From contig DOZJ01000004.1 of the NCBI GenBank assembly GCA_003518055.1, forward strand, positions 6,073-70,072: 64,000 bases of DNA, read 5' to 3'. Below, piece after piece: positions 7,974 through 31,160 of the stretch. A program made the translations under genes and the position numbers. The DNA is from Candidatus Falkowbacteria bacterium (GTDB lineage: Bacteria; Patescibacteriota; Patescibacteriia; UBA11705). Positions within the stretch are counted from its first letter, which is position 1. Every line of letters begins with the position of its first letter. The notes under the pieces were generated by a model. It worked only from the letters and a program-made list of their open reading frames with translations, was not told the DNA's origin and made no database searches.

Positions 7974-7974
7974 A

Positions 7975-9788: not shown

Positions 9789-9844
9789 ACCTACGCTCCT
9801 CACTATGTTCTGAGCTTCGGTTGGTAAACCAAAAATAATATAGT

Positions 9845-10138
9845 ATGTGGTTTGTTTACTTTTTATTACTCACAAATAATGAAATATATGTTGGTTCTTC
9901 AAATAATGTTGCCCGACGCCTCATAGAACACAACAACAAATTAGTCGTGTCAACCGCTAAATTTTTACCTGCAAAACTATTATCTTATATTTGTGTCCCG
10001 ACAAAGAGTAAAGCCATTCAATTAGAAAAATATTTTAAATCTGGATCGGGAAAATCTATATTAAAAAAACGCATTATTGATGTCAACTTCTTTGTAAAGG
10101 ATGGCTTGCCATCCGAAGCTTACGCAGTAAAAGCGTAG
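9845..10138 (+). CDS. Small GIY-YIG nuclease-domain protein.
   Basis: WFVYFLLLTNNEIYVGSSNNVARRLIEHN matches the GIY-YIG core (Y-x10-YVG...R...EHN). The gene sits tightly between two tRNA genes. Confidence 0.6.
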   Translation: MWFVYFLLLTNNEIYVGSSNNVARRLIEHNNKLVVSTAKFLPAKLLSYICVPTKSKAIQLEKYFKSGSGKSILKKRIIDVNFFVKDGLPSEAYAVKA

Positions 10139-10141
10139 GAT

Positions 10142-10218
10142 GGCAGGGTAGCTCAGCTGGTCAGAGCGAGGGAATCATAACCCCTAGGTCGGCGGTTCGA
10201 TCCCGCCCCCTGTCACCA
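10142..10218 (+). tRNA. tRNA with anticodon CAT: elongator Met, or Ile2 if the base is lysidine-modified.
   Basis: Cloverleaf: acceptor ggcaggg/ccctgtc, anticodon loop atCATaa, T-loop TTCGATC, encoded CCA. Confidence 0.8.
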
Positions 10219-10235
10219 TTGCTTATTTTTACTAC

Positions 10236-11216
10236 ATGCAACATATACTTTGGGATTACAAAATCCTATCAATCTTGGCTCTCAGTCTATTAACAATATA
10301 TCTCATTGCCGGCCATCTCAAACGCCGCTGGAGATATGATTCACGGCGTCAAAAAATCCTCATTATTTCTCTTGGGGCTTTTTTTGTTTTGATTTTCGGT
10401 TTTATATTTTACGGCAGTTTTATTGAACCGCAATGGATTCAAACAAAAACCATACCCATCAACCTAAATAACACGGAAAAAAATGAATCACTCAAAATTG
10501 TTCATCTCACTGATCTCCACGCCGGCCCCTACAAAGGCCCGGGGTATTACAAACGTGTAGCCAAAAAAATTCTCGCTATAAACCCCGATTTAATTGTCAT
10601 TACGGGAGATTCTGTTCTTGGCTCGGCTAAAAACATTGAATATCTGACTCCGCTCAAAGAAGCCACCGCCATATATCCCACATACGCAATTTCCGGTAAT
10701 CATGAATATAACCTCAGTATCCCCGAAGACTTTTTTGCCGGCCGTTTTACCGACAAAACTGAAACCATCAAACAATTATTCGCTTCAATTAATATCAGCT
10801 ACATCGACAACCAAACAAAACTGATTCAAACCAAACAAGGACAGCTCTATCTCTCAGGCATCAGAGAAATTTGGTACGAACCCGACACGGTGGATTCGGA
10901 ATTAACTCGTATGGGCGGCTCTATCAACCATGACCTGCCGCACTTGCTCTTGGCCCACAATCCTGAAGTCATCATGAAACCGTCTGCCGCCAAATTTGAT
11001 TTGATTCTTTCCGGCCACACTCATGGCGGCCAAATCCGATTGCCGCTAATTGGCTCCCTCGCATCCATGCCGACAAAGTTGGGCCGATATTATGATATGG
11101 GCTTCTTCCAATTGGAAAAAAATCAGCTCTACATATCCAAAGGATTAGGAGAATCCGGACCACGGGCGCGACTATTTTGCCGCCCCGAGCTGACCGTCCT
11201 TGAAGTCAACTTGTAA
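10236..11216 (+). CDS. Membrane-anchored metallophosphoesterase (calcineurin-like, YkuE/CpdA-type).
   Basis: IVHLTDLHAG; ITGDSV; SGNHEY; LSGHTHGGQIRLP. Confidence 0.8.
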   Translation: MQHILWDYKILSILALSLLTIYLIAGHLKRRWRYDSRRQKILIISLGAFFVLIFGFIFYGSFIEPQWIQTKTIPINLNNTEKNESLKIVHLTDLHAGPYKGPGYYKRVAKKILAINPDLIVITGDSVLGSAKNIEYLTPLKEATAIYPTYAISGNHEYNLSIPEDFFAGRFTDKTETIKQLFASINISYIDNQTKLIQTKQGQLYLSGIREIWYEPDTVDSELTRMGGSINHDLPHLLLAHNPEVIMKPSAAKFDLILSGHTHGGQIRLPLIGSLASMPTKLGRYYDMGFFQLEKNQLYISKGLGESGPRARLFCRPELTVLEVNL

Positions 11217-11286
11217 GTAACTTCCCGATAGTAATACCCATTAATTTCAACCAATTTCAATTTATTTCTTTATTTCTTTTTTTCCT

Positions 11287-11751
11287 ATGCTCATGACCCT
11301 TCACGGCGCTGTCGGCGCTTATGTCGGCGAAAGAATGGATAGCCTCACCCTGGCTTTCATTTTCAGTTTTATCATCCATTTTCTATTCGACATCATTCCT
11401 CACGGCGATCATGAAAATGTCATCATGTTTAAAACCGAAAAAAAAATCAACCGAGTGATCGGTTTGATTGCTATTGATGCGGTCATGGGTCTGATATTTT
11501 TAGCCCTCTATTTCAGTCAAATAAAGACAACTGGCCCCCATCTTTACCCCATCATCGCCGGCATTATCGGCGGCGTCCTGCCGGATCTGCTCGTTGGCCT
11601 CTATCATATGAACAAAAAATATTTATTCCGGTTTAATTTCGTTCATATGCGGCTTCATGAACTGATAAAATTTCGCGTCCCATTAAAATTCGCTCTTCTG
11701 GTCCAAATTATTTTTATCTTGTTCATTTGGCAGTTTTATCATTTTGAGTAA
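11287..11751 (+). CDS. Integral membrane protein, possibly a YdjM/DUF457-like metal-dependent hydrolase.
   Basis: Four predicted TM segments with His/Asp motifs HFLFDIIPHGDHE and GVLPDLL. Confidence 0.35.
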   Translation: MLMTLHGAVGAYVGERMDSLTLAFIFSFIIHFLFDIIPHGDHENVIMFKTEKKINRVIGLIAIDAVMGLIFLALYFSQIKTTGPHLYPIIAGIIGGVLPDLLVGLYHMNKKYLFRFNFVHMRLHELIKFRVPLKFALLVQIIFILFIWQFYHFE

Positions 11752-12861
11752 TCCGACGGCCGTATTCACCCATTTGAATCTTTCAGCCGCGACTTTCCCT
11801 TTTGTTACCAATTCGGTTATCAGTGCTTCACTCGCGAGCACTTTTTTTATTGCCGAATACCAGTCGATATCATCGTGAGGCGGTATCAATAACGCGGCGC
11901 CGTCATTCACCAATTCTTCCGTCACCGGAATCTTTGAAGCGATCACCGGCACACCCTGCTTCATTGCTTCAAGGATTGGCAGACCAAAACCTTCGTTTAA
12001 CGATGGAAAAACAAAACATTTGGCCTGTTGCATCAATATGTTTCGCTCCGTGTCCGTAACCTTGCCGATATACCGAATCGCTTGCTCACCTATTTGCTGA
12101 TTTACTTTAATCATTGTTCGGAAAATTTTTCGATATTTCCACCCTTTAATGCCAGCCACCACCAACTCAACTTGACCGGGAAATTCTTGGGCATATTTAC
12201 CAAAAACGTGAAACAAATGCCGTAAATTCTTTCTCGGCTCGATCGTACCCACGAAAAAAATATAATCTTTCTTAATTTTAAATTTATCTTTGACCTCTTT
12301 GATTTCTTTTTCTCCATACGTGACTCTATCTTCAACCCCGGAATAAACCGTTATCACATCCTTTTCTCTTTTGAATTTAAACAAATAAAGCAGCTCTGTT
12401 TTAGTCGCGTTGGAAATGGTCATAATATTGGTTGCCTTGGCGATACTCGACGGCACCACCAGCAATTTTGAAAACCACTGCTTGTTCGGAAACCATTCCG
12501 GATAATTATAAATCAATAAATCATGAATAATGAGCGTACTTTTGCCCACATAAAAAAACGGCATAACATTGGCGGGGAAAATACACCAATCGAGCCATTC
12601 ACCCCAGAGATTAAACGTAAAACCAACGTGAGCCGAAAAAAACGGCACTCGATTTTTCACTTTTACCACTTTAAATCCACGATGAGTTCGCAACGCGTTC
12701 AACGTTTCCTCGCCAATCTGTTCATCAAAAAACAACACGTATTCGCTGTTTCTATCCTGAGCCAGAATCGCTTTAACCAAATTAAAAACATACCGCGGAA
12801 TTCCAGCTCCGCGATTATTTTTCACATCATAAATTTGTCGGCAATCAATTCCGATTTTCAT
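11683..12861 (-). CDS. Glycosyltransferase family 4 (GT-B fold).
   Basis: MKIGIDCRQI...; FVGTIEPRKNL; FVFPSLNEGFGLPILEAMKQGVPVIAS (EX7E-like motif). Confidence 0.85.
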   Translation of the reverse strand: MKIGIDCRQIYDVKNNRGAGIPRYVFNLVKAILAQDRNSEYVLFFDEQIGEETLNALRTHRGFKVVKVKNRVPFFSAHVGFTFNLWGEWLDWCIFPANVMPFFYVGKSTLIIHDLLIYNYPEWFPNKQWFSKLLVVPSSIAKATNIMTISNATKTELLYLFKFKREKDVITVYSGVEDRVTYGEKEIKEVKDKFKIKKDYIFFVGTIEPRKNLRHLFHVFGKYAQEFPGQVELVVAGIKGWKYRKIFRTMIKVNQQIGEQAIRYIGKVTDTERNILMQQAKCFVFPSLNEGFGLPILEAMKQGVPVIASKIPVTEELVNDGAALLIPPHDDIDWYSAIKKVLASEALITELVTKGKVAAERFKWVNTAVGLLKMIKLPNEQDKNNLDQKSEF

Positions 12862-12880
12862 AATACAAAATTTATCTTTT

Positions 12881-13393
12881 TCAATCTGCGTTCAAACCAA
12901 AAACCGCCAGCCCTCCGATACTAACGAGCGTGACGATAATCCCCGCGATAATTGTCCCTAGAGACACCAGCCAAAACGCCTTTTTCTTTTCAACCCCAAA
13001 CAAATACGCCGCCGCTGCCCCGGTCCAGACACCAGTTAGAGGCAATGGTATGGCCACAAATATCACGAGAGCGATCTCTCCGTAGGTTAAGTACTTTCCT
13101 TCAAATTTTTTTCTGGTTCGCTCAAATAACCAGCTAAAAAATTTATCCGCCCACCTGAATCTAGGCCGCAAAAATTTGGTGGCCAAATCAAGCGAATAAA
13201 CTAAAACAAAGGTTATAAATACACTCCCAAGAATCGACCAAAAAAACGCTGACCAAGCGGACATTTTGAATAACCCCATCGCTACCGGTATTGAAGCGCG
13301 AACTTCGGTCAATGGAATAATCGCCAATAAAAAAGTCGCCAATTCATGCGGCAAATTTTTCACCCAGTCTACAACAAACATAATTATTTCCAC
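12881..13393 (-). CDS. Small integral membrane protein (COG2426-like; putative small exporter).
   Basis: Four to five hydrophobic helices and no soluble domain. Confidence 0.4.
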   Translation of the reverse strand: MEIIMFVVDWVKNLPHELATFLLAIIPLTEVRASIPVAMGLFKMSAWSAFFWSILGSVFITFVLVYSLDLATKFLRPRFRWADKFFSWLFERTRKKFEGKYLTYGEIALVIFVAIPLPLTGVWTGAAAAYLFGVEKKKAFWLVSLGTIIAGIIVTLVSIGGLAVFGLNAD

Positions 13394-14337
13394 AAATAAT
13401 TTTTAAACACCCAATCAGCCAATACTTTTGTATCTTGAAATCTATCAGTAATCGTATCACTATTCAAGGCCACGAACATCACCGATTTGTCTTCATATTT
13501 TATCTCAACAGCCAGACAATAACCGGCTTCAGGCAAAAATCCGGTTTTACCGCCGATCAATTCATATCCAAATTGTTCGCTGTTCAAAAAACTTTCAAGC
13601 AAAATATCCGTATTAACGATTCTTCTTTTTTTCTCGTTATTCAATATATCAAACGAATATTCAGACTGCAACACCGATTCTCTGATTTCATTATGCTGCA
13701 AAGCAGCGTAAACCATTTTGGCCACATCGGTGGCCGTCGACACATTGGCCGGATCAAGTCCGGTCGGATCAGCGAATTTCGTATTATACAGTTTCAATTG
13801 CTTGGCTTTATCATTCATCATTATTACGAAATCAGTCTCAGAAACCCCTAAACTTCTAACCATTGCCAGGATCGCGTTGTTATCCGAACTGATCAACGCC
13901 GCTTTCCACAAATGGAAAAAGGTCACTTCTTCTCCACGATACAAATGAGGATATGCCCCGCTGGTCTCATCTCCGGCCGTCATCACGACTGTTTTATTCC
14001 AATTCGGCCGCAAATCCAAGATCACCATAGCGGTCATCAATTTGGTAATGCTGGCAATCGGCTGCTTTAGCTGGGCTTGATTTTCAATCAACACCAAACC
14101 GGTATCCACATCAATCGCGACATATTTCTCCGCCGTAATCTCGACGCCGATATTTTGTTCATTGACTCGGATTGGGATGTCATCAGAGTATTGAATCTCA
14201 GGCGTCAAAAAAACCCGCTGCTCGTTTTCCACCGTATAAACCCCCGCTTGAGTACTGATTAAAATCAAACTTAATATGATTCTTAAAACTGGCATAATGC
14301 GTAAACTTAATCTACACCCCCGGCTCGTCTTTTGCAC
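13384..14337 (-). CDS. D-alanyl-D-alanine carboxypeptidase (PBP5/6-like S11 peptidase).
   Basis: SxxK SITK (ASITKLMTAMVILD); SxN SSDNNA; KTG GGKTGF; signal peptide. Confidence 0.85.
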   Translation of the reverse strand: MQKTSRGCRLSLRIMPVLRIILSLILISTQAGVYTVENEQRVFLTPEIQYSDDIPIRVNEQNIGVEITAEKYVAIDVDTGLVLIENQAQLKQPIASITKLMTAMVILDLRPNWNKTVVMTAGDETSGAYPHLYRGEEVTFFHLWKAALISSDNNAILAMVRSLGVSETDFVIMMNDKAKQLKLYNTKFADPTGLDPANVSTATDVAKMVYAALQHNEIRESVLQSEYSFDILNNEKKRRIVNTDILLESFLNSEQFGYELIGGKTGFLPEAGYCLAVEIKYEDKSVMFVALNSDTITDRFQDTKVLADWVFKNYLWK

Positions 14338-14869
14338 TCAAAAACTGCTCGAGATTCTCCACCTGATGCAGCTTATCAAAATCCGGTAACTCTTTAACTG
14401 ACTTTAGCCCCAGATATTTCAACAATTCCGGCGTCACCACATAAACCAATCCATTTTCACGTTCTGATTCCTCAATCAATCCTCGAATCAGCAAATTCCT
14501 CAGAATCAAACTGCAATTCACGCCCCGAATTTGCTCCAGCACCGGCTTGGTTATTGGCCCGCGATAAGCGATAATCGTTAATGTTTCAAGCGATGGCTGA
14601 GTCAACTCGCCGGTTCTCTCATCTTGAACCAATATTTTAACCAAATCGGCATTCGCCGCCGCTGTGACCAGTTGATATTGCCCGTTGCTTTCAATTAGAT
14701 TAATGCCGCTGTCTTCAACATTAAACTTTGCCTGCAAACCGGCCATCGCTTCTTCCACTAAATGTTTCTCCACCTTTATCCCTTGTTTATCAAAAAACTT
14801 CACCAGCCATCCGACCGTTATTGGTTTAACCGAGGCAAATAACAGACTCTCGATCTGAGATTTAAGCAT
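14312..14869 (-). CDS. scpB: Segregation and condensation protein B (ScpB).
   Basis: N-terminal IESLLFAS..P; two winged-helix repeats; typical length. Confidence 0.7.
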   Translation of the reverse strand: MLKSQIESLLFASVKPITVGWLVKFFDKQGIKVEKHLVEEAMAGLQAKFNVEDSGINLIESNGQYQLVTAAANADLVKILVQDERTGELTQPSLETLTIIAYRGPITKPVLEQIRGVNCSLILRNLLIRGLIEESERENGLVYVVTPELLKYLGLKSVKELPDFDKLHQVENLEQFLSAKDEPGV

Positions 14870-15117
14870 AAAAAAAATTATTTCCGTACTGGCAGTATAC
14901 TACAAATCCCCACAATTCTCAAGCCATACCATAACATATAGGTAGCTGCCTTTGTAAAAAGCATCCCGAAATAGCCTGGCAATGTTAAACTCGATTTGTA
15001 AAATCCAAGATCAATTAATTTTATAGCTTTCGTAGTATTTGCGGTATTCGTAGTATTTGCCTGCCTGCCGGAGCTCGTTCAACAAGAGCATAGGCAGGTA
15101 ACCATTCGTAAATTCGT

Positions 15118-15148
15118 AACATTAAAAAAGACCTGATTATTATCAGAT
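15118..15148 (-). terminator. Terminator after the ABC ATPase gene.
   Basis: On the minus strand, agatctgataataatcaggtct followed by a T6 run. Confidence 0.5.
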
Positions 15149-16063
15149 CTAAATTGACTCAACCACCTCAGCCGCCACCGCACCCTGCTCCTCTGTCAAG
15201 GTCATGAAACTATCCGGATGCGTCTGATTGAACGCTTTGACGCTCTGACAGAATTTGGGCTCAAAACTCTCATGTCGAATCCGATGAATCAAATCGCTGA
15301 AGGCCGGAGACTTCTTGACCTCAGTCGACTTGATGCTTCGACCCAGATCATAATCAGACACAATGCGCGCGCCATGCTTCAAGCCATGACGGCCATCGCT
15401 GTAATATTGACTGAAAGCCACCACCCGAGAGCCCAAAAAAACCGCTTCTTCCAAATCATGGGTCACAAAGAAAATAGTCATCCCCGTCTCTTCCCAGACT
15501 TCCAAAATAAACATCTGCAGATCTTCACGCGTATACGGATCAAGCGCACCATAGGGTTCGTCCATCATCAAGATTTCCGGCTTCATAATCAATGCCTGAG
15601 CAATTGCGACCCGCTGCTGCTGACCGCCGGACAATTGATGCGGTTTTTTCTTCGCGTCATCTTCAAGACCAACCTTCTTCAAATAATACATGGCTTCATC
15701 TCGACTCGTCTCCATGCTTCCAAGTAATTCTAGGCATGTTGCTGTAAAAAGCTTACCGATCATTACATTTTCCATTGCTGTCAGATGAGGAAACAAACTG
15801 TAGCGCTGAAACACGATCCCTCGCGTCACGTCCGGATGGTAAATTTCCCGTCCATCGATCAGCATTGTACCGCTGGTGTGCCGCTCCTGCCCCAAAATCA
15901 ACCTGAGCATCGTCGACTTGCCGCAGCCGGATGGTCCGACCACCGTCACAAATTCCCCGCGGGACACCTTGAAGTCAATATCATCTAGAACCACGTTAGC
16001 GCCATACGCCTTCACCATGTCGAGACAATAAATCACATGATTCTCTTCTCTGGCGGCGCTCAT
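15149..16063 (-). CDS. ABC transporter ATP-binding protein (nitrate/sulfonate/bicarbonate NitT/TauT family, SsuB/TauB-like).
   Basis: Walker A GPSGCGKST; signature LSGGQQQRVAIAQAL; Walker B ILMMDEP. Confidence 0.85.
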   Translation of the reverse strand: MSAAREENHVIYCLDMVKAYGANVVLDDIDFKVSRGEFVTVVGPSGCGKSTMLRLILGQERHTSGTMLIDGREIYHPDVTRGIVFQRYSLFPHLTAMENVMIGKLFTATCLELLGSMETSRDEAMYYLKKVGLEDDAKKKPHQLSGGQQQRVAIAQALIMKPEILMMDEPYGALDPYTREDLQMFILEVWEETGMTIFFVTHDLEEAVFLGSRVVAFSQYYSDGRHGLKHGARIVSDYDLGRSIKSTEVKKSPAFSDLIHRIRHESFEPKFCQSVKAFNQTHPDSFMTLTEEQGAVAAEVVESI

Positions 16064-16072
16064 ATTTCCCTC

Positions 16073-17020
16073 CTATCCGTTTTTGATATCGACATACCAG
16101 CGGTATTTCCAATCGAGAATTTTCTTTAGAATAAAATTCATCAAAAACCCGATAGACGTAATCCAAAAAACAATGGGAATAATCAGGCTCATGTTCAAAT
16201 ACCGCCGCGACAAGAAAATGCGGTAAGCCAAACCATTCTTTGAAGCAATAGCTTCAGCCGCAATTAGAAACAACCACGCCGGACTCAGATACACTCTAAT
16301 CATCTCGATGAAACGAGGCATCACCTGAGGAAAAATAATGCGATAAACAATCGCCCACGAACTGGCGCCAAGCGTCAGCGCTTTAACAATCTGCTCCCGA
16401 GGAATGTTCTCAACCGCGATCTTGAGATCTCGAGTCATCAAAAAGGTGATCCCGAGCACAATCAAAGAAATTTTTCCCAACTCTTCCACTCCAAGCCCGA
16501 TAAAAATAATCGGCAAAATGGCCAACGGTGGAATAATGGACACGAAGGTCACAAATGGCATCCAAGTCGATCTAACCCAGGGGTAAATTCCCATCGACAA
16601 ACCCCAAATCAAAGACAGCACCGACGCAATCGAGACACCGATCAGCAACCGCTTCAAACTGGCCAACGTGTCATCCACAAACAAATTCTTGTCTGTCCTC
16701 TTGTCAGTTTCCACCACATAAATCTTGACCTGCTCATACATCTGCGAAATCGTCGGCAGAATCTTGTCTCTTGGATTTTCCTCGTGCCGCTTATTCGAAA
16801 AGTGAATATATGTCCCGAGAAGCAACACAAATGGAACGATCGCCAACAAAACCTTCGCCACTCGACTGGGACAATAGTGCAAACTAAAAAAAGTTTTTAC
16901 TGTGTTCCAAATCCGGCTCAAAACATTCACTCCCACGCTCCAAATCCATTTCAACATCTGCATTTGGGCCTCCTTTTGGGGCATTTGCTGGTTTACGTTT
17001 TTGTTATCAAAGAACCGCAT
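16073..17020 (-). CDS. ABC transporter permease (SsuC/TauC-like).
   Basis: Six TM segments and an EAA-like loop; operon context with the ATPase and the binding protein. Confidence 0.75.
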   Translation of the reverse strand: MRFFDNKNVNQQMPQKEAQMQMLKWIWSVGVNVLSRIWNTVKTFFSLHYCPSRVAKVLLAIVPFVLLLGTYIHFSNKRHEENPRDKILPTISQMYEQVKIYVVETDKRTDKNLFVDDTLASLKRLLIGVSIASVLSLIWGLSMGIYPWVRSTWMPFVTFVSIIPPLAILPIIFIGLGVEELGKISLIVLGITFLMTRDLKIAVENIPREQIVKALTLGASSWAIVYRIIFPQVMPRFIEMIRVYLSPAWLFLIAAEAIASKNGLAYRIFLSRRYLNMSLIIPIVFWITSIGFLMNFILKKILDWKYRWYVDIKNG

Positions 17021-17202
17021 ATTTTACACAAAACAATCTCATTTGTCAAGTCGTCTCTCATTTTAGCCAAAATCCCCAACAACCGAGACAAGCTTGTTTG
17101 TAATTCCTTTTTTCTTCACGTCCCCAAACCTTACTCCGTAATATTCGTATTTTTTGTAAATTCGTAATAAAAAAACTCTAGTCTGTTAACTAGAGTCTAA
17201 TA

Positions 17203-18258
17203 CTAAAGCTTGCCGTCAGCGGCCATCTGCATATACTTGGTCGTGAAGCGCAGCTTCACGTTCCTCTTGTCTCCCATCACCGAACCATCCGGCAGCTCAA
17301 TCCCGACTTCATCCTTCGACTTCGCAGTCGGGCCGAACATTCCCTTATCGAAACAGAACGTCCGAACAAACTCCATGGTCTTGGCCAACGTCGCACTGGC
17401 CGTGAATTCAACCGCCGCCTTCGGTGTGTAGTACATGTACGTCGTCTTCAGCTGAGCCTCAAACTCCGCCAGCGTACCACCGGCCGTCTTGGCCATGAAA
17501 GTCAGAGCTTCCTTGGTAGGAGCGCCCTTACCCGACATCACCGCCATGGTCTCATACCAGGCTCCGGTCAGCGCCTTCTTGAGCTCTTCCGGCGCATCGG
17601 TCCTGACCACCAAGAGATCCAGAATCTCTCCGGGGATCTGTGCGCTTGTGAAAAGAACCTTCGCTCCGCGCTCCTGCCGAATCTTCATCACGATCGGGTT
17701 CCAAGTTACGACCGTTGTCTGCGGCGTTCGATTCGCGACGAACAAACCGGCAATTTCACTGTCACTCGTATTCACAAACGCTCCGAGATCAGCCTCGCTC
17801 ATACCGTTCATGGCGAGTGCCCGAGCTACCAGATAGTGACTGACACTGAGCTCAACACCGAAAATATCTCGGCCGCGCAGATCAGCCACGCTCGTCCCAC
17901 TGTAACTCACAATGGCATCATTGCCATCACTGTAATCACCGACGATCACCACCGTCGAGTCCTTGCCTCCTGATGCCGGAACCGTCAGCGCGTCCATGTT
18001 GGTCATGACACATGCATCATAATTTCCGGCCGTATACAGATTGATTGACTCCATGTAATCCATGGGAGGTGACAGCTCAATCGTAATGCCATACTTGTCG
18101 CCCCACTTCTTCAGCGTTCCCGCCTGTTCGGTCTGAGCCCACGGCTCCCAGCCCGTATAATGCGACCACGCCACCTTGTATGTCGTCTTCGCCATCACCG
18201 AACCAGCAAAAATCGTCGCCAGAATCATAGCCGTCAGAGTCAGCAGCATCTTTCTCAT
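17203..18258 (-). CDS. ABC substrate-binding protein (NMT1/SsuA/TauA family).
   Basis: Signal peptide; YKVAWSHYTGWEP...; GDYSDGNDAIV; operon context. Confidence 0.7.
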   Translation of the reverse strand: MRKMLLTLTAMILATIFAGSVMAKTTYKVAWSHYTGWEPWAQTEQAGTLKKWGDKYGITIELSPPMDYMESINLYTAGNYDACVMTNMDALTVPASGGKDSTVVIVGDYSDGNDAIVSYSGTSVADLRGRDIFGVELSVSHYLVARALAMNGMSEADLGAFVNTSDSEIAGLFVANRTPQTTVVTWNPIVMKIRQERGAKVLFTSAQIPGEILDLLVVRTDAPEELKKALTGAWYETMAVMSGKGAPTKEALTFMAKTAGGTLAEFEAQLKTTYMYYTPKAAVEFTASATLAKTMEFVRTFCFDKGMFGPTAKSKDEVGIELPDGSVMGDKRNVKLRFTTKYMQMAADGKL

Positions 18259-18296
18259 GGGCGGTTTCTCCTGTGGTTGTTGGTTGCCCGTTGAGA

Positions 18297-19169
18297 TTAG
18301 CGGTACTTCTCGGCCCGAGCCGCTATGGCTTGCAGGCCGGCGACTACTTCATCCATCGTCGAACCATTGGCGTATTTTTCACCTGTCTTCATTCTTCCAA
18401 TATCTACAGTCCGCATTTCCAGCTGAGTAATAATCTCTTCATTTGCGACCAGCAAATCTTTGATCTGGTCCAGATTATCAATTTTCAACTGCAGCCGATC
18501 GGACAAAGTTTTTACTTCTTTTTCTACTCTCGCGGATGGCGTTTGATTTCTTTGAAGCTGTTCAATCCGAGCTCTGAGAAACCTCTCATCGACCGATCGA
18601 ATCGCTTTGAGTGTCGTCACCACCGCGTTCAAATTATCCAGCACAGTAAAAGCCGCGTTTTCCGCTGCGGCAAAAAACCGCCCGAATGTCAGTTCCCCTG
18701 TCTGCAGCTTCTCCATCAAAAGATCGATTAAATCATTTACGGTCCGGGACACTTGGTCAAACTGCTGAATGCCGCGCTCGACATACTCATTGGCGCCGGC
18801 GATCTCGATGCAGTCTTCCAAATTTTCCCGAATCTGCTGCTTTTTCCACTCATTATATTCTTCTGCTCTCTTGCGAAGCTCCTGCAAATGTTTATAGGTT
18901 AATGCTTCGCCTCGAAAGAAATAATTCACGATCCAGCTGCCCAACCCAACACCGGAGCCGCCAATCGCGGCGTAGATGAAAATCGGCAACGGGCCGAGAA
19001 TCAAACATCCCAACGCTCCAATAATGCCCAAAGCCAATGGGTAGGTGGTCACCGGACTGGTAACCGTCTTTTTCAGCACCTCCGTGCTGATCGCCTTTTC
19101 AGTGTAATCACCAGCCTCAGGCTTGGCTCGCGCTGGAGGCAGTCTTTTGGGTTCCTTTCGCCACCCCAT
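18297..19169 (-). CDS. Membrane protein with two TM segments and a long coiled-coil (XpaC/TelA-like?).
   Basis: Two hydrophobic helices (LALGIIGALGCLILGPLPIFIYAAIGGSGVGLGSWIV) then a roughly 200-aa helical region. Confidence 0.35.
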   Translation of the reverse strand: MGWRKEPKRLPPARAKPEAGDYTEKAISTEVLKKTVTSPVTTYPLALGIIGALGCLILGPLPIFIYAAIGGSGVGLGSWIVNYFFRGEALTYKHLQELRKRAEEYNEWKKQQIRENLEDCIEIAGANEYVERGIQQFDQVSRTVNDLIDLLMEKLQTGELTFGRFFAAAENAAFTVLDNLNAVVTTLKAIRSVDERFLRARIEQLQRNQTPSARVEKEVKTLSDRLQLKIDNLDQIKDLLVANEEIITQLEMRTVDIGRMKTGEKYANGSTMDEVVAGLQAIAARAEKYR

Positions 19170-19183
19170 TTTCCCTCCTTGCG

Positions 19184-20743
19184 CTACAGGTCTTCTCGCA
19201 CCAAAACAATCTCAACTCGAGGTAGACCATACTGCCAATCTCGATATGATTGCCCAGCCTCCCGAATCAAAGGCTGCTCACCCCCAAGCCCATGAGCCAA
19301 ACACCGGTTAAAATCAACATTGTGAGTCACATTCAAATACTGAACCACTGACTCGGCTCGTTCCTGAGACAGCTGCTTGTTGGCCGTAGGGTCGCCTTCA
19401 TTGCTGGTATGCCCCACCACCTTGATCCGATACTGAGGAAAATGCTTCAGCTTCTGCATCAATTTGTCGAGCTCTTCTTTGCCCTCAGTACTCAGCTGGA
19501 ACGTGCCGCTTTGAAATACAATCGGCTGAATTTTCAACGTCCCAACCGGCTGGAGCTTGGCCCAATTTTCCGCTGCCAGAGGTTCAAATTTCATCCCCTG
19601 CGTCAACATCGCTTCCGCGACCGTCGTCGGGGTCTTAACCCCACTATACCCAGCGTATAGATCCTGCAACACTCCACTATAAATAATCTTATAAGGATCC
19701 TCATCCGGCAATGGACTGGCCTTAAAATCATCATTATCAATCAACACATTAACCGTTGATTCAATCACTTCAACCAACACTTCATTCGAATCCTCACCTG
19801 GAGCTGAAATTCCAAACCACTTGGTGCAATTCTGAGACATCGACGGCCAATCCACACCGTCAACCATATCCCTTACTCGCTTCCGATCTGATTTGGTTTC
19901 CGCTTCCAATTCCTTGAACCACTCTTCTTCATTATCCCGATACCACTTTAGCGCTCGGAAATAATTGGACAGGAACAATTTCACTTCCTTTGGATTCTTC
20001 TTGAGAAAATCTCGACTCACCACCAAAATATCAACCACATACCTTTCAGTTTCTTTGGTGCTGAAAATCTTTACCACTCCGGGCTGCTCTAGGGCGCGAG
20101 AAACATCAGGCTCCCAAAGCACCGCCACGTCCGCCTGACCGGAAAGCAGCTTTTGCAGCGCTTCTTCCGATCCCTTGGTTTCAATTCTCATGCCGGTCAA
20201 ACCAGATGGCAAAAGTTCATTCAAATTAAAGTGCGACTTGAGCGCCTTGAGCAGGTAATGACTCGGCGAATCCGGTGTAAAAGCTACGCGTACGCTCTTG
20301 CCGCGAAAATCATCCAGTGATTTTCCCGCTTTTTCCAAAGCTACGACCGCGTCGCCGCCATTTGATTCATCAATCACCGTCACCACCACTCCCGGATAAT
20401 TATGCTTGGCCGCGTTCAGAATATAAGAATCAACCGTCACGACCGCAAAATCAATCTCACCGTCATTCAGCTGTTTCATCCGAGCGTGATAATCAGCCGC
20501 GTCATCAATTACTTTAACTTCCCAGCCGGCCTGACGCATCCGCTTCTTAAATTCCTTGGATCTGAATGGAAAATATCCAACCCAGTTATCAAGGGCGATA
20601 GTAATCTTTCCTTCGACATCCTTGGCATCACTGGTTTCAACCACTTCCGCTTCATCCAACACCGGCTTGGTAAATTTCCACACCAACATCGCAACCACAG
20701 CAACCAACACCAGCAATCCAGCGCCGATCAGCTTCTTATTCAC
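19184..20743 (-). CDS. Fusion protein: N-terminal TM segment, an SsuA/NMT1-like solute-binding domain, and a C-terminal OmpA/MotB-like peptidoglycan-binding domain.
   Basis: The SBP region ITIALDNWVGYFPF...ESNGGDAVVALEKAGKSL is paralogous to 17203..18258. C-terminus IVFQSGTFQLS...VVGHTSNEGDP..N..LSQERA..V..YL (OmpA-like). Confidence 0.6.
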   Translation of the reverse strand: MNKKLIGAGLLVLVAVVAMLVWKFTKPVLDEAEVVETSDAKDVEGKITIALDNWVGYFPFRSKEFKKRMRQAGWEVKVIDDAADYHARMKQLNDGEIDFAVVTVDSYILNAAKHNYPGVVVTVIDESNGGDAVVALEKAGKSLDDFRGKSVRVAFTPDSPSHYLLKALKSHFNLNELLPSGLTGMRIETKGSEEALQKLLSGQADVAVLWEPDVSRALEQPGVVKIFSTKETERYVVDILVVSRDFLKKNPKEVKLFLSNYFRALKWYRDNEEEWFKELEAETKSDRKRVRDMVDGVDWPSMSQNCTKWFGISAPGEDSNEVLVEVIESTVNVLIDNDDFKASPLPDEDPYKIIYSGVLQDLYAGYSGVKTPTTVAEAMLTQGMKFEPLAAENWAKLQPVGTLKIQPIVFQSGTFQLSTEGKEELDKLMQKLKHFPQYRIKVVGHTSNEGDPTANKQLSQERAESVVQYLNVTHNVDFNRCLAHGLGGEQPLIREAGQSYRDWQYGLPRVEIVLVREDL

Positions 20744-20863
20744 ATTTACCTCCTGTGGTTTTGGGTCTCGGCTTTAGACTGAATAATGTAATTGGGACTG
20801 CCGACGAGTTTCACCTCGCCGGCAGCAGAACCGCCGCGCAATTTGGCTGCGATTCAAAAAAAC

Positions 20864-21700
20864 TTACTTCTCAAACTCCGTCACAACGAACTCCTCCGAT
20901 TCAGCCAACACGCCCTTCAGCGCTTCAGCCAATTCCTCGGGTGAATTCGCTTCCTTGTAAATAGTCGTATTCGGCTGATTCAACGTATGACGGTTTCCAA
21001 TGCAAAAACCAATCGTATAAATCACCACCGGCGACTCGGACGTAATCTGGGTTACCAAATGATGCAAAGAATATTCATCATTGGCGATACCATCAGTTAC
21101 CACGACAATCATATATTCACCGTAGCCAAGCTGTTTGACCGCTTCCTTGTTAATCGCCTGATAAGCCAAGTGCAGCGCTTCGGTCAGCGGTGTCCCACCT
21201 CCATCACGAGCACTATTGACCTCAACAATAAACTTTTCTCGATTATTCAACCCCAGAGATACCAGCTGCCGTGGATCAGAACGCTGATCGAACAGCACAA
21301 AACCCAAATTGGCATCAGCTGGTACACTCCGAGAAAAAGCCTCAATCGCGCGTTTGGCAACAGTCAACTTACTCTCAGAACTTGAACATCCTCTCTCAGC
21401 CATACTACCTGAACTATCAAGGATAACCAAGTAATTCTTCGTCGTCCAAAGTTCGCTCGGCGAGACTTCCCGATTATCAACCGGCGCGAACGGCCAAGCC
21501 GTTTCCCGCGTTGGATTCACCACCGGAGCCACCGGCTCAACCGGCTGCGGTTCCGCCCGATAAGGCGCCGAGGCCGGTGAAGGAGATGGACTCGAACTAT
21601 GCGGAGCGTAATACTCCTGCTTCTTCCTGCAACCAAGTACCGCCAAACCAATAACCACCATCGACCACAAAGTAATCTTGATTGTGTTATTCATCGTCAT
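20864..21700 (-). CDS. von Willebrand factor type A (VWA) domain lipoprotein.
   Basis: Lipobox LAVLGC; MIDAS motif LVILDSSGSM; GGGTPLTEAL; VVVTDG; Pro-rich linker. Confidence 0.75.
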   Translation of the reverse strand: MTMNNTIKITLWSMVVIGLAVLGCRKKQEYYAPHSSSPSPSPASAPYRAEPQPVEPVAPVVNPTRETAWPFAPVDNREVSPSELWTTKNYLVILDSSGSMAERGCSSSESKLTVAKRAIEAFSRSVPADANLGFVLFDQRSDPRQLVSLGLNNREKFIVEVNSARDGGGTPLTEALHLAYQAINKEAVKQLGYGEYMIVVVTDGIANDEYSLHHLVTQITSESPVVIYTIGFCIGNRHTLNQPNTTIYKEANSPEELAEALKGVLAESEEFVVTEFEK

Positions 21701-21712
21701 TGGTCACCTCCC

Positions 21713-23428
21713 TCAGAGCGGCTTAAAGGCTGAAGCCTCAGCCTCCATGGAGATTAGGCGAAAATCCACCCGCATATTCTCCCGCCACTGCTGCTCCGTC
21801 TTGGGAGCGCAGGGATCGGCTCCGCACATACCGCTCCGCGGCTGCTCGAAGCCATGACCAACAACCGTAAACTGCGTCGGATCAAGCGTGACACCCTTGG
21901 ACGCGGCGTACTGAATAATCGAATCGCGAACAGTCATTGATCGCTGAACTGTAAGGCTCTTGGCAACCTGCCGCACCTGAGTCAGAATGACCTGTGGATC
22001 TCCGGCCTTCTTCTTGCGCAGATACCCCATCGGATCAGCATTCCCTTCAATAACAATCACCGCGCCGCCCAAAACTGCCGCCTGTGCAATGATCTGATCG
22101 TATTCATCCTGATAACGAGCAGCGGAAAAATCAATCTGGTTGGGCTCAAAGAAAATCGAACTGGTCGGGAGAATCTGATCAGAATCCAAAGTTCCGGTCC
22201 GCAATCGCGTGTCCACGACCGCTGCCACCCGTTCCTCATCGAAGAGCGGCTTTTCAGCCAGAATCTGCAGCTTGGCGCCGGAGCCCATCAACGAGTAGTC
22301 CCATTCGGCATGAGTGAGTGCTACCGTCGCGGCCATCAGTCCGAGGTCGCGGAAAGCCGACTGAATGTCAGCCACCACTTCCCGGAAACTGCGCCGAGCA
22401 CCCGCGCCGGAAAAAAACCTCTGATTTTCACCAATGTCGGAGAAAGTGCAGTCAGCATACATCGCCCCCGCGTCTTCCACCGCCTTGTCACTTCCGAGAA
22501 TAATCTTGGCAAACGCCTTGACCAGATCTCGGTATTCCTGCTTGCCCGCCTTGACCACGGCCGCCATATCCTGGCCAGCCCTGAGCATGGTCTGAGCAAA
22601 CGCGTAAACAGTTTCCTTGTGCGCGTTGAAGTAATCGCTTCTAACCGCAAACACATCGAAAATCACATGGTCAGCACTCTTGGTCGACAACAGAATACGC
22701 GCGCCCTTGACCGAACCCTCGGCACCGGTTCCAACCGTGCCGTTGCTCGACAGAGCCAGCGCGTCCGGGATAATGGCAAACGCCACATCAGCCTGACCGC
22801 GCCTGAGCGCCTCAGCCGCCGTCTTGTCCGAAGCCGTAAGGTCATCAGTCCAAACCAGCTTGACATCAGAAACACTGAGATTCACTGACTTGAGAATGCG
22901 CCAGAGATAGTACATATGCGGACCATAGGCCTGCAGCGCCACGCGCTTGCCCTTGAAATCCGCCGCCGTCTTGATGCCTTCGGTCACGACCACAGCGTCA
23001 CCGCCGGTTGACCGAGTCAGAAGCAGCACTACCACGGGCTGCACCCGAGGATCGCTCTTCGTCGCCTCTGTCACCGCGTTGATCATGTCGAGCGTGCCGC
23101 GCAGATATGGCGTCTTGCCGGACATATAATCCTTGAACTGCTGTCGGAAATCGTCCTGCAGCGTGATATCAAAACACAGCCCCGCCTGAGCAAAAAGAGA
23201 GCCGGACTTGGTCCGCTTCTCATTGCCATTGGCAAAAACCGTTTCATATTCACCACCCCAGGTAATCACCGGCAGCTGCACACAATCACTTGGAGTCACC
23301 TCTCCGACTGACACATGAACATCCTGCCAAATCGGCTTGAGCTGCTGAGCTGAAACCTGATTCGACACCAACGTCACCGCCAAAATCGCCCACAGACACC
23401 ACCTTCTCATGTCTCCCTCCTGCCCCAC
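21713..23428 (-). CDS. Secreted SsuA/NMT1-like solute-binding domain fused to a C-terminal OmpA-like domain. Paralog of 19184..20743.
   Basis: Signal peptide; LLTRSTGGDAVVVTEGIKTAADFKGKRV parallels ESNGGDAVVALEKAGKSLDDFRGKSV; C-terminus IFFEPNQIDFS...VIEGNADPMG...VVGHGFEQP. Confidence 0.6.
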   Translation of the reverse strand: MGQEGDMRRWCLWAILAVTLVSNQVSAQQLKPIWQDVHVSVGEVTPSDCVQLPVITWGGEYETVFANGNEKRTKSGSLFAQAGLCFDITLQDDFRQQFKDYMSGKTPYLRGTLDMINAVTEATKSDPRVQPVVVLLLTRSTGGDAVVVTEGIKTAADFKGKRVALQAYGPHMYYLWRILKSVNLSVSDVKLVWTDDLTASDKTAAEALRRGQADVAFAIIPDALALSSNGTVGTGAEGSVKGARILLSTKSADHVIFDVFAVRSDYFNAHKETVYAFAQTMLRAGQDMAAVVKAGKQEYRDLVKAFAKIILGSDKAVEDAGAMYADCTFSDIGENQRFFSGAGARRSFREVVADIQSAFRDLGLMAATVALTHAEWDYSLMGSGAKLQILAEKPLFDEERVAAVVDTRLRTGTLDSDQILPTSSIFFEPNQIDFSAARYQDEYDQIIAQAAVLGGAVIVIEGNADPMGYLRKKKAGDPQVILTQVRQVAKSLTVQRSMTVRDSIIQYAASKGVTLDPTQFTVVGHGFEQPRSGMCGADPCAPKTEQQWRENMRVDFRLISMEAEASAFKPL

Positions 23429-23565
23429 CCGGGGCTTCTGTGGTGAAGGTCAAAACTCCAAAAATTTTTCTTGATCTATTTCCATTGTCAAGGCACAAAA
23501 TAACCTCTTAAATTACTACAAAAATATAAATTTGTCAACACCCCAACCTTTTTACCCTAAAAATA

Positions 23566-23593
23566 CAAAAAAAATGGTTCCAACACCATTTTT
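23566..23593 (-). terminator. Terminator after scpA, possibly bidirectional.
   Basis: Stem aaaatggt/accatttt with loop tccaac, flanked by A/T runs. Confidence 0.55.
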
Positions 23594-23600
23594 CTTCCCC

Positions 23601-23760
23601 TTGCTGCGAGGCGTACGTAGTAACGCCGTGGCAGCCTCCACCCGGTTTCAAGATTTAGCTCAAAGTAGTAACGACGCCTGCCCGCCTTTGGCGGGAAGCA
23701 GCCTCCAATCAGCTGCCAGACGCGGCAACCCTCAATAGCCGTCAAATGTAGCTGCCCCCA
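23601..23760. repeat. GC-rich structured segment between the scpA stop and its terminator. It contains internal imperfect direct repeats (gtagtaacgNcg x2, gcagcctcca x2) and several hairpins.
   Basis: Copies of the first repeat at 23617-23628 and 23665-23678. gcagcctcca at 23631-23640 and 23698-23707. Hairpin cccgcctttggcggg. Confidence 0.5.
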
Positions 23761-23831
23761 TTCAACGTTGCAGTTAACTTTTATCCCTCCCCCGAAAAAA
23801 CATTTTTTTCTTGTCTTTAATCACTTGCCGT

Positions 23832-24545
23832 TCACATCTTCTCAATATAAATTTCATCAAATAAATTTCCTTGTTTAACCGTCAAATGTTTTTGTTTCAC
23901 CAGCTCCAACATCGCCAAAAAGCTCATGATCACCTCGGTTCGCGATTCAGCCTGATCAAACAATTCCTTGAAACTCAAATTTTTTCTGGTTAAAAGCAAT
24001 TCTTTCAAATGCAAAATTTTCTGCTGCAGACTGACAGCCCGATCAATCATCTGCTTCGGCATTCTGACCAACGGATCCAATCTCTTTAACACCTGAATCA
24101 ATACTGATTTTAAATTATTGGTGGTAATATTTTCCGCCGGTGAAAAATCCACCTGCAAATCAATTTTGGTTTTTTCCCGCGAATACAAAAATTTTTCTTG
24201 TTTCAAAATCTGCTCCACCTTTTTCGTTGCTTCCAAAAATTCTTTATAAATCCTTAACTGCTTTTCCAGACTGTCAAAATCTTCTTCATCATCAATAACC
24301 GGTAATATCGCTTTTGATTTCAAATACAAAAGCCTGGCCGCGACCACCAAAAAATCTGACAACTCTTCAGGGTCTCGTTCACTCAATTTTTCCGTGTATC
24401 CGATAAACTGATCAGTCACCTGACTCAAAGACACTTCAGTTATTTCCAGTTTTTGCTGTTCGATTAACTGAAGCAGCAAATCCATCGGACCAGCGAATTT
24501 ATCAATTTTAATTTTATACATAATATATAAACACAAAAATTCCAA
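23832..24545 (-). CDS. scpA: Segregation and condensation protein A (ScpA).
   Basis: FAGPMDLLLQLIEQQKLEITEVSLSQVTDQFIGY, the canonical ScpA N-terminus. Confidence 0.8.
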   Translation of the reverse strand: MEFLCLYIMYKIKIDKFAGPMDLLLQLIEQQKLEITEVSLSQVTDQFIGYTEKLSERDPEELSDFLVVAARLLYLKSKAILPVIDDEEDFDSLEKQLRIYKEFLEATKKVEQILKQEKFLYSREKTKIDLQVDFSPAENITTNNLKSVLIQVLKRLDPLVRMPKQMIDRAVSLQQKILHLKELLLTRKNLSFKELFDQAESRTEVIMSFLAMLELVKQKHLTVKQGNLFDEIYIEKM

Positions 24546-28778: not shown

Positions 28779-30170
28779 TCAAACCCCTTTAATGTGTAAT
28801 TCATTTAAAACTTCTTTTGATATTTCGCTCGGGGCCCCCATCATCAAATCCTTAGCGTCACCAGTTTTAGGAAACGCAATTACTTCTCGGATATTCTTTT
28901 CATTTAAAAGTATCGCGATGAGACGGTCCAGCCCTAATGCGATTCCACCATGTGGAGGCGGGGCGAAGCTAAAAGCCTCAAGCAAATGCCCAAAACGTAA
29001 ACTAATCTCAGTTTCATTTAATCCTAATATTTGGAACACCTTCTTTTGTAAATCACGTTCAAATATTCTTAGACTTCCGCCACCAACTTCAAACCCATTT
29101 AAGACAAGATCATATGCCTCCGCCCGCACCTTTTCTGGTTTTTCTTCCATCATGTTAATATCATCATTTTTTGGTCGAGTAAATGGATGGTGCACCGAAA
29201 CCATTTTTTTCTCCGTATCGCTATATTCAAATAAAGGGAAATCGATAATCCAACCGAATGCCAATAAATTTGGATCTTGCTCTGTGCGCAAGTCCGGTTT
29301 ATCACTTTTATACAATTTTTGTGCTTCCATATATGTTAAGCGTGGAAATGGTATTTGCTGCATTCTTAAATTCGGGAAAAGCTCTTTCACCAAATCAATC
29401 ATGGCTTTTTCTATCAATTGCAAGATATCTTCTTGATCTATAAAAGACATTTCTAAGTCAAATTGGGTAAATTCCGGTTGACGATCACCACGCTGATCTT
29501 CATCACGAAAACAGCGAACAACCTGGTAATAACGTTCAATTCCAGCAACCATTAGCAACTGCTTAAACTGTTGTGGTGATTGTGGTAAAACATAAAAATT
29601 CCCTTTATGAATCCGAGAAGGGATAACGAATTCGCGCGCACCCTCTGGCGTTCCCTTGGTCAGATAAGGCGTCTCAATTTCCCAGAAACCTTGTTTCGAA
29701 AAATAATTGCGTAAAAACAAATTTATTTCTTGCCTCTTTTTCAAATTGTTTTTTACTCGTTCACTACGAATATCCAAATACCGATATTTCAATCGCATGC
29801 CCTCACTCAATTCAAGAGTATTCTGCTCAACTTCAAAAGGCAAAGCTTCAGACTCTGAAATAATAAAAATATTTAAGACTAAAATTTCAATTCGATCCAG
29901 CTGCACTACAAAACTCTTTTGTTTATCACCCCTTTTTTGTACAATTCCGTTTATTTCAACCAACCAACCCAATCGAACGTTGCTCAAGACATCAATTGAG
30001 TGTTGATCCAAATCATTACCTACGCCGACTACCTGAACTACACCCGAACGATCCCTAATGTCTAAAAAAACAATCTTGCCCATATTACGTCTAGCTGCAA
30101 CCCAACCCTTAATCCAAACCGTCTCCCCTATTTTGCTGACTGCTTCTTCTAAAAAAATGTATTTACTCAT
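28779..30170 (-). CDS. aspS: Aspartyl-tRNA synthetase (compact form of 463 aa).
   Basis: FRDEDQRGDRQPEFTQFDLEMSF (class IIb motif 2, bacterial AspRS type); OB-fold N-terminus; motif 3 GGGSLRI. Confidence 0.8.
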   Translation of the reverse strand: MSKYIFLEEAVSKIGETVWIKGWVAARRNMGKIVFLDIRDRSGVVQVVGVGNDLDQHSIDVLSNVRLGWLVEINGIVQKRGDKQKSFVVQLDRIEILVLNIFIISESEALPFEVEQNTLELSEGMRLKYRYLDIRSERVKNNLKKRQEINLFLRNYFSKQGFWEIETPYLTKGTPEGAREFVIPSRIHKGNFYVLPQSPQQFKQLLMVAGIERYYQVVRCFRDEDQRGDRQPEFTQFDLEMSFIDQEDILQLIEKAMIDLVKELFPNLRMQQIPFPRLTYMEAQKLYKSDKPDLRTEQDPNLLAFGWIIDFPLFEYSDTEKKMVSVHHPFTRPKNDDINMMEEKPEKVRAEAYDLVLNGFEVGGGSLRIFERDLQKKVFQILGLNETEISLRFGHLLEAFSFAPPPHGGIALGLDRLIAILLNEKNIREVIAFPKTGDAKDLMMGAPSEISKEVLNELHIKGV

Positions 30171-31153: not shown

Positions 31154-31160
31154 ACTGCAA

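Follow-up and report, generated by a model that had tools for sequence, protein, structure and literature searches.

In a 64,000-nt stretch of the genome of Candidatus Falkowbacteria bacterium (contig DOZJ01000004.1; the whole stretch is referred to as the window), the genes scpA and scpB of the SMC-ScpAB system lie 8,962 nt apart and are separated by a block of other genes. This arrangement is most probably the outcome of horizontal transfer, by which a seven-gene module of about 8.5 kb was inserted into a short spacer between scpA and scpB, and the module is likely to encode a wall-anchored importer of the NitT/TauT type. The host, a tiny groundwater bacterium, belongs to the Patescibacteria or Candidate Phyla Radiation (CPR), and the locus would represent a clean, well-controlled case of gene gain inside a housekeeping operon of a reduced CPR genome. 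A sequence-only reading of the window had taken the split gene pair as the mark of an acquired island, an interpretation that was supported by the comparison with related genomes, by nucleotide composition, by the patchy distribution of the module and by independent assemblies.

The scpA-scpB locus and the distribution of the module

Profile searches aligned scpA to PF02616 and scpB to PF04079 with near-full coverage of either model, and both genes were found to be full length (Table 1), confirming their identities, their strand, their order and the separation of roughly 9 kb given in the sequence-only reading. An error in the scpB call had been named there as a possible refutation; the profile search gave a strong match to PF04079 (E=2e-40) together with a TIGR00281 score above the cutoff. 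The order is scpA followed by scpB, both on the minus strand, and the usual scpAB adjacency is absent, a hairpin being located 3' of scpA and a promoter-like site of its own 5' of scpB (consensus matches). The listing of open reading frames (ORFs) contained seven intervening genes, all on the minus strand, and public gene calls on identical contigs also gave seven. The number of eight stated previously was therefore wrong, and the accompanying list itself sums to seven. The contents named in that list, an ABC importer, a VWA lipoprotein and fusions of a substrate-binding protein (SBP) to an OmpA domain, were confirmed as gene calls by the ORF listing and by profile searches.

The relatives used for comparison comprised 77 loci of GTDB representatives and 68 loci of JGI metagenomes containing both genes (the two sets were not de-duplicated). 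The gap between scpA and scpB was at most 150 nt in 66 of the GTDB loci and 61 of the JGI loci, i.e. in 127 of 145 related loci, with a median of approximately 27 nt; it ranged from 150 to 1000 nt in seven and four loci and was larger than 1 kb in four and three loci, respectively. The gaps above 1 kb measured 2.1–6.0 kb, and the largest of them (5,975 nt) is exceeded by that of the window. None of the 145 related loci carried genes of the block between scpA and scpB. Thus, the pair is mostly contiguous among relatives, as the sequence-only reading had anticipated, and the same spacing with the same genes was not seen in any of them. The best ScpB relatives were all Patescibacteria, mostly Falkow-, Magasanik-, Uhr-, Komeili- and Buchananbacteria. 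Moreover, dac, coding for a D-Ala-D-Ala carboxypeptidase, follows scpB in 76 of the 80 loci compared, mostly at a distance of no more than 1–2 kb, so that scpA-scpB-dac was the ancestral unit.

Inserts at this junction were also present in other Patescibacteria (loci L022, 5168–9783; L033, 4147–9148; L037, 7914–8945; and L052, 6157–9941). A protein containing a PEP-utiliser domain recurs in three such inserts, L033 carries NAPRTase paralogues and L022 an M20 peptidase. The scpA/scpB junction is usually tight and has been opened independently several times in the lineage. As about one in eight related genomes has an opened junction, the adjacency of the two genes is a habit of this lineage and not a constraint. 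The transfer is a fairly ordinary one, for which the separated scpAB genes provide a neat marker but nothing surprising; the further interest lies in the cargo, which is uncharacterised and unusually mobile.

The block was also set apart by its composition. Its seven genes showed a mean GC content at third codon positions (GC3) of 0.58 (range 0.52–0.68), as against an average of 0.44 among the remaining 52 ORFs (Mann-Whitney p=6e-5). When the window was scanned in sliding segments of 8.5 kb, the difference in dinucleotide signature (delta*) from the rest of the window reached its overall maximum, 0.1035, at 15001–23500, over a background of 0.02–0.04, and the tetranucleotide distance was maximal at the same position (0.30). 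The shift previously noted between 17.2 and 23.4 kb was borne out by these profiles, but its extent had been drawn too narrowly: the ATPase and permease genes showed a raised GC3 of 0.57 as well, so that the foreign segment comprises the whole block and not just the 17.2–23.4 kb portion.

Outside the window, the full module consists of genes for an SBP of approximately 570 aa, a VWA protein, an SBP/OmpA fusion, a protein with two transmembrane segments (2-TM, approximately 295 aa), TelA (approximately 405 aa), a second free SBP of approximately 350 aa, a permease and an ATPase. A module with the same order was found in Desulfogranum japonicum (L086), three other CPR genomes and two metagenome contigs. 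TelA follows the 2-TM gene in eight bacterial or plasmid copies (L081, L083, L086, L093, L094, L095, L177 and L178), and the window copy is the sole one without TelA among the bacterial and plasmid copies examined, with 38 nt (18258 to 18297) between the 2-TM gene and the gene of the TIGR03427 SBP, where other copies hold TelA. Vibrio megaplasmids, e.g. pIFO15640 (L178), carry the module near RctB and PRTRC genes, and the TIGR03427 orthologue on a Vibrio plasmid bears the same NCBI pipeline name. The phage genome LR756511.1 (L180, 595 kb) showed the same order with no recognisable TelA, and SBP/ABC genes were also present on LR756501.1 (L181, 735 kb) and LR756503. Bacillus phage G (L179, gp243–gp250) carries a reduced form consisting of the ABC genes gp243 and gp245 and the SBP-OmpA paralogues gp249 and gp250, with no TelA or VWA gene. 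On an IMG/VR contig of 545 kb (L182), module and flanks have the same GC content, and homing endonucleases of the LAGLIDADG and HNH types are encoded beside and within the module. In Candidatus Electrothrix (L177 7279–13791, CP178758.1), a five-gene core (SBP, VWA, SBP/OmpA, 2-TM and TelA) was found with no adjacent ABC genes. This core adjoins an oxidative-stress cluster encoding a rubrerythrin, a desulfoferrodoxin, a peroxiredoxin and Fur. Overall, the conserved module comprises seven to nine genes, and homologues were distributed among Desulfobacterota (including cable bacteria), sulfur-oxidising Gammaproteobacteria, Planctomycetota, megaplasmids, giant phages and a few CPR bacteria. No description of the module was found in the searchable literature, and searches on TIGR03427, on the phage accession and on the ABC/OmpA genes of phage G gave nothing relevant.

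Within the CPR, the module occupies three sites: the scpA/scpB junction of the window, a position downstream of alaS in two genomes (L081 4929–6986, Candidatus Falkowbacteria; L095 6207–8060, Candidatus Kuenenbacteria), and a different location in GW2011_GWA2_40_23 (L083), where scpA and scpB are adjacent. The L083 module (7381–18123) is flanked by mobile-element-like genes (Fic/RhuM, Bro-N, GIY-YIG and PD-(D/E)XK), and this copy is presumably an extreme, very recent acquisition. A single 933-aa gene call in L083 joins permease and ATPase.

Gene content and possible function

The first and the third gene of the block encode the two SBP-OmpA proteins (Table 1). The 565-aa protein has a Pal-like fold, and the Asp and Arg residues of the peptidoglycan-binding motif (D459 and R490) are invariant in its family. 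The 519-aa protein was 100% identical to a protein of a public Candidatus Falkowbacteria metagenome-assembled genome and approximately 50% identical to Desulfobacterota proteins named 'phosphate ABC transporter substrate-binding/OmpA family protein'. Between them lies the gene of the VWA lipoprotein, the translation of which contains the motifs DSSGS, GGGTP and VTDG of the metal-ion-dependent adhesion site (MIDAS). The 2-TM protein showed no Pfam or NCBIfam match and belongs to a family of approximately 1,200 clusters at 50% identity for which there is no Pfam model; its AlphaFold2 model was all-helical (pLDDT 70). A comparison with XpaC (PF10112) gave no match up to E=10 for the 2-TM protein, and one of 148 family members matched (E=1.4e-3). 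The TIGR03427 protein showed no match to PDB by sequence. The permease ORF is open to 17020, the start at 16963 being favoured by the public call and by the position of the promoter.

The binding-protein folds of the block are genuine solute-binding folds, and an SBP of the SsuA/TauA/NrtA fold, a BPD_transp_1 permease and an ABC ATPase are present together, as in NitT/TauT importer operons. The module most likely encodes an ABC importer of the NitT/TauT (taurine/sulfonate/nitrate) type that is anchored to the wall and depends on binding proteins. In such a system the two paralogous SBPs would be tethered to peptidoglycan via their OmpA-like domains, one of them being also membrane-anchored, the VWA lipoprotein with its intact metal site may bridge components, and the free TIGR03427 SBP would, together with the permease and the ATPase, import a small solute, either anionic or nitrogenous. 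The 2-TM protein is normally paired with cytoplasmic TelA, which would have been lost from, or never been present in, the window copy, and the pair is probably an accessory for membrane homeostasis. CPR bacteria are thought to lack an outer membrane, and in cells of this kind OmpA-like anchoring would be functionally equivalent to lipid-anchoring of an SBP; the fusion of an SBP to a peptidoglycan anchor suggests a way to hold such proteins at the wall without an outer membrane. In phage G, the host of which is Gram-positive, the two SBP-OmpA proteins are the sole binding proteins beside the ABC genes, supporting a role as cognate wall-anchored receptors.

Compared with known importers of the NitT/TauT type (TauABC, SsuABC and NrtABCD/CmpABCD), the block has three SBP paralogues instead of one, two of them fused to OmpA domains, and a VWA lipoprotein and a 2-TM protein (with TelA in other copies) are embedded in the operon. 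The PF00691 match of the 519-aa protein and the Pal-like fold and Asp/Arg pair of the 565-aa protein are shared with OmpA-like anchors; the anchors of the block, however, are joined to solute-binding domains, whereas in Pal, MotB, YiaD and the C-terminal domain of Acinetobacter baumannii OmpA this place is taken by a lipid anchor, stator plug or beta-barrel. Like the xpaC-telA pair of Firmicutes (PMC6811118), other module copies have a gene for a 2-TM/helical protein directly 5' of TelA (PF05816), although the 2-TM protein has no established homology to XpaC and the window copy is without TelA.

Three findings weigh against the importer interpretation. The canonical peptidoglycan-binding Asp is not kept in the family of the 519-aa protein, in which the Arg is invariant and the Asp position is occupied by Ser in the window copy and by Gly in most members. 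The TIGR03427 protein scored above the equivalog cutoff of the 'urea carboxylase-region' SBP model, but the gene context that gave this model its name is absent, as no urea carboxylase or allophanate hydrolase was found within approximately 7–10 kb of the module in the window and eight other copies. Finally, the SBP-OmpA pair of Candidatus Electrothrix has no adjacent ABC genes, suggesting that these proteins need not serve a transporter.

A broader view of the cargo is tentative. The module, most copies of which include TelA and the NitT/TauT importer genes, may be an undescribed, widely mobile envelope module of giant phages and megaplasmids that has repeatedly crossed between Gram-negative phyla and the CPR, and that serves a need of the mobile element at the host envelope, either wall-anchored solute capture during infection or exclusion and protection. 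Phages carry auxiliary genes for nutrient uptake, e.g. pstS of cyanophages; in contrast to this single SBP, the giant phages considered here carry a whole multi-gene envelope module. If this view were true, the CPR copies would bear witness to genes carried by phages or plasmids into the reduced genomes of episymbionts. The substrate, once identified, would reveal what is worth importing for an episymbiotic CPR cell and for a giant phage alike.

It is unlikely, although a number of observations would fit, that the block is instead an envelope stress, exclusion or conflict system of phages and plasmids, with SBP-OmpA, VWA, 2-TM and TelA as its core and the ABC genes as an option, which has been kept in the CPR for envelope protection or phage exclusion. 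The ABC-less core of Candidatus Electrothrix and the carriage on megaplasmids and giant phages are consistent with such a system, as is TelA, a 'toxic anion resistance' protein; the xpaC-telA genes of Enterococcus faecium affect daptomycin binding and membrane phospholipid domains (PMC6811118). However, the window copy has a complete ABC importer and no TelA, and phage G retains the ABC genes and two SBP-OmpA genes with no TelA or VWA gene, in addition to the bona fide solute-binding folds of the SBPs. Among the PADLOC models, the block proteins matched only generic ones for P-loop ATPases and MotB-like proteins, apart from a weak match of the 2-TM protein to LeoBC (E=6.7e-4); no match was specific to a defence system or family.

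Origin of the module

In all four CPR genomes examined the module was GC3-rich compared with its flanks (0.58 vs 0.44 in the window; 0.59 vs 0.50 in L081; 0.81 vs 0.31 in GW2011_GWA2_40_23; 0.58 vs 0.35 in L095), whereas it was host-like in Desulfogranum japonicum (0.44 vs 0.45). Neighbour-joining trees were calculated from the best 120 homologues of each SBP-OmpA protein. In both trees the named CPR copies formed, with a few unlabelled sequences, a single clade with a bootstrap support of 200/200, suggesting that the immediate donor may be another CPR bacterium or an unsampled element and not directly a Gram-negative bacterium. These data are most simply read as one entry of the module into a gene pool associated with the CPR, with repeated transfer thereafter; ancient vertical residence is less likely.

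Horizontal transfer into CPR genomes is already known (Jaffe et al. 2020, PMC7304191). As with the acquired blocks described there, the block is a patchy accessory trait of a reduced genome for which phylogeny and composition indicate transfer; it differs from them in that it splits a conserved housekeeping pair and in that its cargo relates to envelope and transport, not to a central-metabolism enzyme or a hydrogenase. It also differs from classical integrase- or tRNA-associated islands, as it contains no mobility genes or att-like repeats.

Several observations weigh against a straightforward insertion of foreign DNA. In addition to the single CPR clade, the divergence of the module among CPR genomes (50–58% identity) is about that of ScpA/ScpB (53–58%), which could fit long residence and relocation. 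The closest ScpB relative found shared 58% identity among the GTDB representatives and 59% among the JGI metagenomes, and no 'empty site' was available among these relatives. Approximately 12% of the relatives hold something between scpA and scpB, including 2–6 kb of other genes. Pfam and NCBIfam profile searches of the seven block genes revealed no integrase or transposase, and there are no tRNA or Rfam elements at the block ends, the nearest tRNA being located at 10142. A search for direct or inverted repeats between 14870–15150 and 23430–23830, the intervals proposed for a direct-repeat search in the sequence-only reading, yielded only short matches at chance level, and a word-7 blastn comparison of the three spacers with all fetched loci and the window returned nothing beyond a TACGAA motif. 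Furthermore, the promoter and terminator calls at the locus are consensus or fold predictions only.

The TACGAA motif itself bears on the age of the block. Clusters of the hexamer occur on the minus strand of the window at 15034–15118, 17149–17166 and 56173–56199, immediately 3' of a terminator hairpin or of the end of a gene, and the 12-mer TTACGAATTTAC occurs three times, twice in block spacers and once (56189) after a host ABC exporter gene (56203–58092). Similar TACGAA clusters were found in related CPR genomes (L004 1251–1314; L001), and the cluster looks like a lineage-typical intergenic motif. The presence of this host-lineage TACGAA/TTACGAATTTAC motif in the block spacers makes it less likely that the block came only very recently from a distant donor. 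The copy of TTACGAATTTAC at 56189 had been considered as an ancestral alaS-module junction and was rejected, as the gene there encodes the ABC exporter and not alaS.

Taken further, these data could mean that the module is old in the CPR clade, has been inherited vertically and reached scpA/scpB by intragenomic relocation or rearrangement, an explanation that we consider quite improbable. It would account for the well-supported clade in two proteins, for the similar divergence of module and ScpA/ScpB, for the alaS-adjacent site common to two CPR genomes and for the host-type motif in the block spacers. It would also account for derived features common to the CPR copies. One of these is the internal terminator-promoter pair before the permease gene: the terminator plus TTGACAAA promoter layout of the window is also present in the CPR-clade copies L081, L083, L093 and L094, while Desulfogranum lacks it and has a gap of 21 nt there. 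The other is the lipoprotein form of the VWA protein, with a Cys after the signal peptide that is absent in the Desulfogranum copy. However, the GC3 of the module is unameliorated in four CPR hosts, with GW2011_GWA2_40_23 as the extreme, and this is hard to square with residence since their divergence. Moreover, the module looks rare and patchy in the CPR, with four named CPR carriers among the 240 homologues listed, and was present in none of approximately 160 scpB neighbourhoods. Insertion by horizontal transfer is therefore preferred as the origin of the block.

An assembly chimera, in which a Gram-negative contig had been joined between scpA and scpB in assembly or binning, is excluded: although the sequence comes from a metagenome-assembled genome and the block differs in composition from its surroundings, scpA, the whole block and scpB, with the same gene content, were recovered on an 83-kb contig (L087; ENA SRR2177986), the block with scpB and a 136-aa upstream fragment taken as the 3' end of scpA on another (L089; SRR2177953) and the block-scpB junction on two more (L088 and L090; Logan SRR6482257 and SRR5855242), both junctions would have to be chimeric and in the same orientation, and the host 12-mer motif lies inside the block spacers.

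Boundaries, transcription signals and other features of the window

The boundaries of the block were bracketed to 23545–23831 on the left and 14923–15128 on the right (Table 1). The 238-nt spacer 3' of the scpA stop codon gave no Rfam match, a fold z-score of −1.4 compared with shuffled sequences and no similarity to any fetched locus; this GC-rich spacer may have been left behind by the insertion. The terminator-like hairpin reported in the sequence-only reading next to this spacer is present in the sequence and in the predicted fold, although it has fewer than three G-C pairs and does not appear in the consensus terminator scan. Likewise, the TTGACA elements that had been described between this hairpin and the block were found. 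The stretch TTGACAAATTTATATTTTTGTAGTAAT, which covers the region of the first element, is approximately 80% identical to a stretch 5' of the module in L081 (Candidatus Falkowbacteria), and a similar stretch is located 5' of the module in L083, suggesting that the TTGACA elements arrived with the module.

According to these signals, transcription of scpA would probably stop at the hairpin 3' of it, and the module would supply TTGACA promoters of its own, a terminator followed by a promoter between the free SBP gene and the permease gene, and a further terminator at its end. scpB is probably transcribed from its own promoter-like site or, the block being co-oriented, by read-through. The promoter- and terminator-like signals of the block would let scpB be expressed separately.

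Table 1. Genes, spacers and predicted transcription signals at the scpA-scpB locus of the window, in the direction of transcription.
Feature	Positions	Strand	Evidence
Intact scpA (kleisin subunit, SMC-ScpAB; 237 aa), flanking the insertion on the left	23832–24545	-	PF02616 E=3.9e-22; NF000994 E=1.4e-39; public gene call also 237 aa
GC-rich 238-nt spacer 3' of scpA stop; imperfect direct repeat D19 (GCAGCCTCC...), 67-nt spacing	23594–23831	-	Sequence, repeat search
AT-rich hairpin, 9-bp stem followed by T-run; terminator-like, would end scpA transcription	23566–23593	-	Sequence and fold prediction
Two TTGACA promoter-like elements 5' of first block gene	23538–23533; 23491–23486 (second promoter to 23464)	-	Second, 10/12 consensus matches; first, read from sequence
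Secreted 565-aa protein: signal peptide, TauA/SsuA/NrtA-like substrate-binding domain, divergent OmpA/Pal-like wall-binding domain	21713–23410	-	First gene of block
VWA-domain lipoprotein: lipobox VLGC, Pro/Ser-rich linker, MIDAS intact	20864–21700	-	PF13519 E=2.5e-12; PF00092 E=5.5e-11; lipobox and MIDAS read from translation
519-aa SBP-OmpA fusion: N-terminal transmembrane anchor, NMT1/SsuA-like substrate-binding domain, OmpA domain	19184–20743	-	PF00691 E=2.5e-18; PF09084 E=2.6e-10
290-aa 2-TM helical protein; C-terminal helical domain, probably cytoplasmic	18297–19169	-	Full-length ortholog of the ~295-aa gene in other modules
Secreted SBP, 351 aa, TIGR03427 ('putative urea ABC transporter substrate-binding protein')	17203–18258	-	457.3 bits vs cutoff 333.9
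Internal terminator hairpin (11-bp stem) after TIGR03427 gene	17198–17173	-	Consensus scan
Promoter TTGACA-17-TAAAAT 5' of permease gene	17049–17021	-	11/12 consensus matches
ABC permease, NitT/TauT type, 296 aa	16073–16963	-	PF00528 E=4e-19; best NCBIfam matches TauC, SaoP, SsuC
ABC importer ATPase	15149–16063	-	PF00005 E=4.5e-35; taurine-, nitrate- and sulfonate-type ATPase models among best matches
Terminator hairpin after ATPase gene	15150–15129	-	Consensus scan
Right-hand spacer, two TACGAA clusters	14870–15150	-	Sequence
Promoter-like TTGAGA-17-TATACT, 25 nt 5' of scpB	14922–14894	-	Consensus scan
Intact scpB (185 aa), flanking the insertion on the right	14312–14869	-	PF04079 E=2e-40; TIGR00281 108 bits vs cutoff 89
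dac, D-Ala-D-Ala carboxypeptidase (Peptidase_S11), 3' of scpB	13384–14337	-	PF00768 on public gene call

Other regions of the window also stood out by their composition. A second odd block on the minus strand (30179–35237; GC 0.29–0.35, GC3 approximately 0.25–0.28) contains five genes, coding for a GFO/IDH/MocA oxidoreductase, a nucleotidyltransferase, an FMN-dependent dehydrogenase, a class-III aminotransferase and a UDP-GlcNAc 2-epimerase, and is located between paralogues of a class-II (Asp/Asn/Lys-type) aminoacyl-tRNA synthetase (28779–30170 and 35293–36588). This block was probably acquired as well and would serve the modification of sugars. On the plus strand, the ORF 3443–4156, with no Pfam match, showed a GC content of 0.56 and a GC3 of 0.68, its surroundings having 43–46% GC. 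At 9714–10218, two tRNA-Met(CAT) genes are located 350 nt apart, with a small low-GC ORF (9845–10138, GC 0.33) between them.

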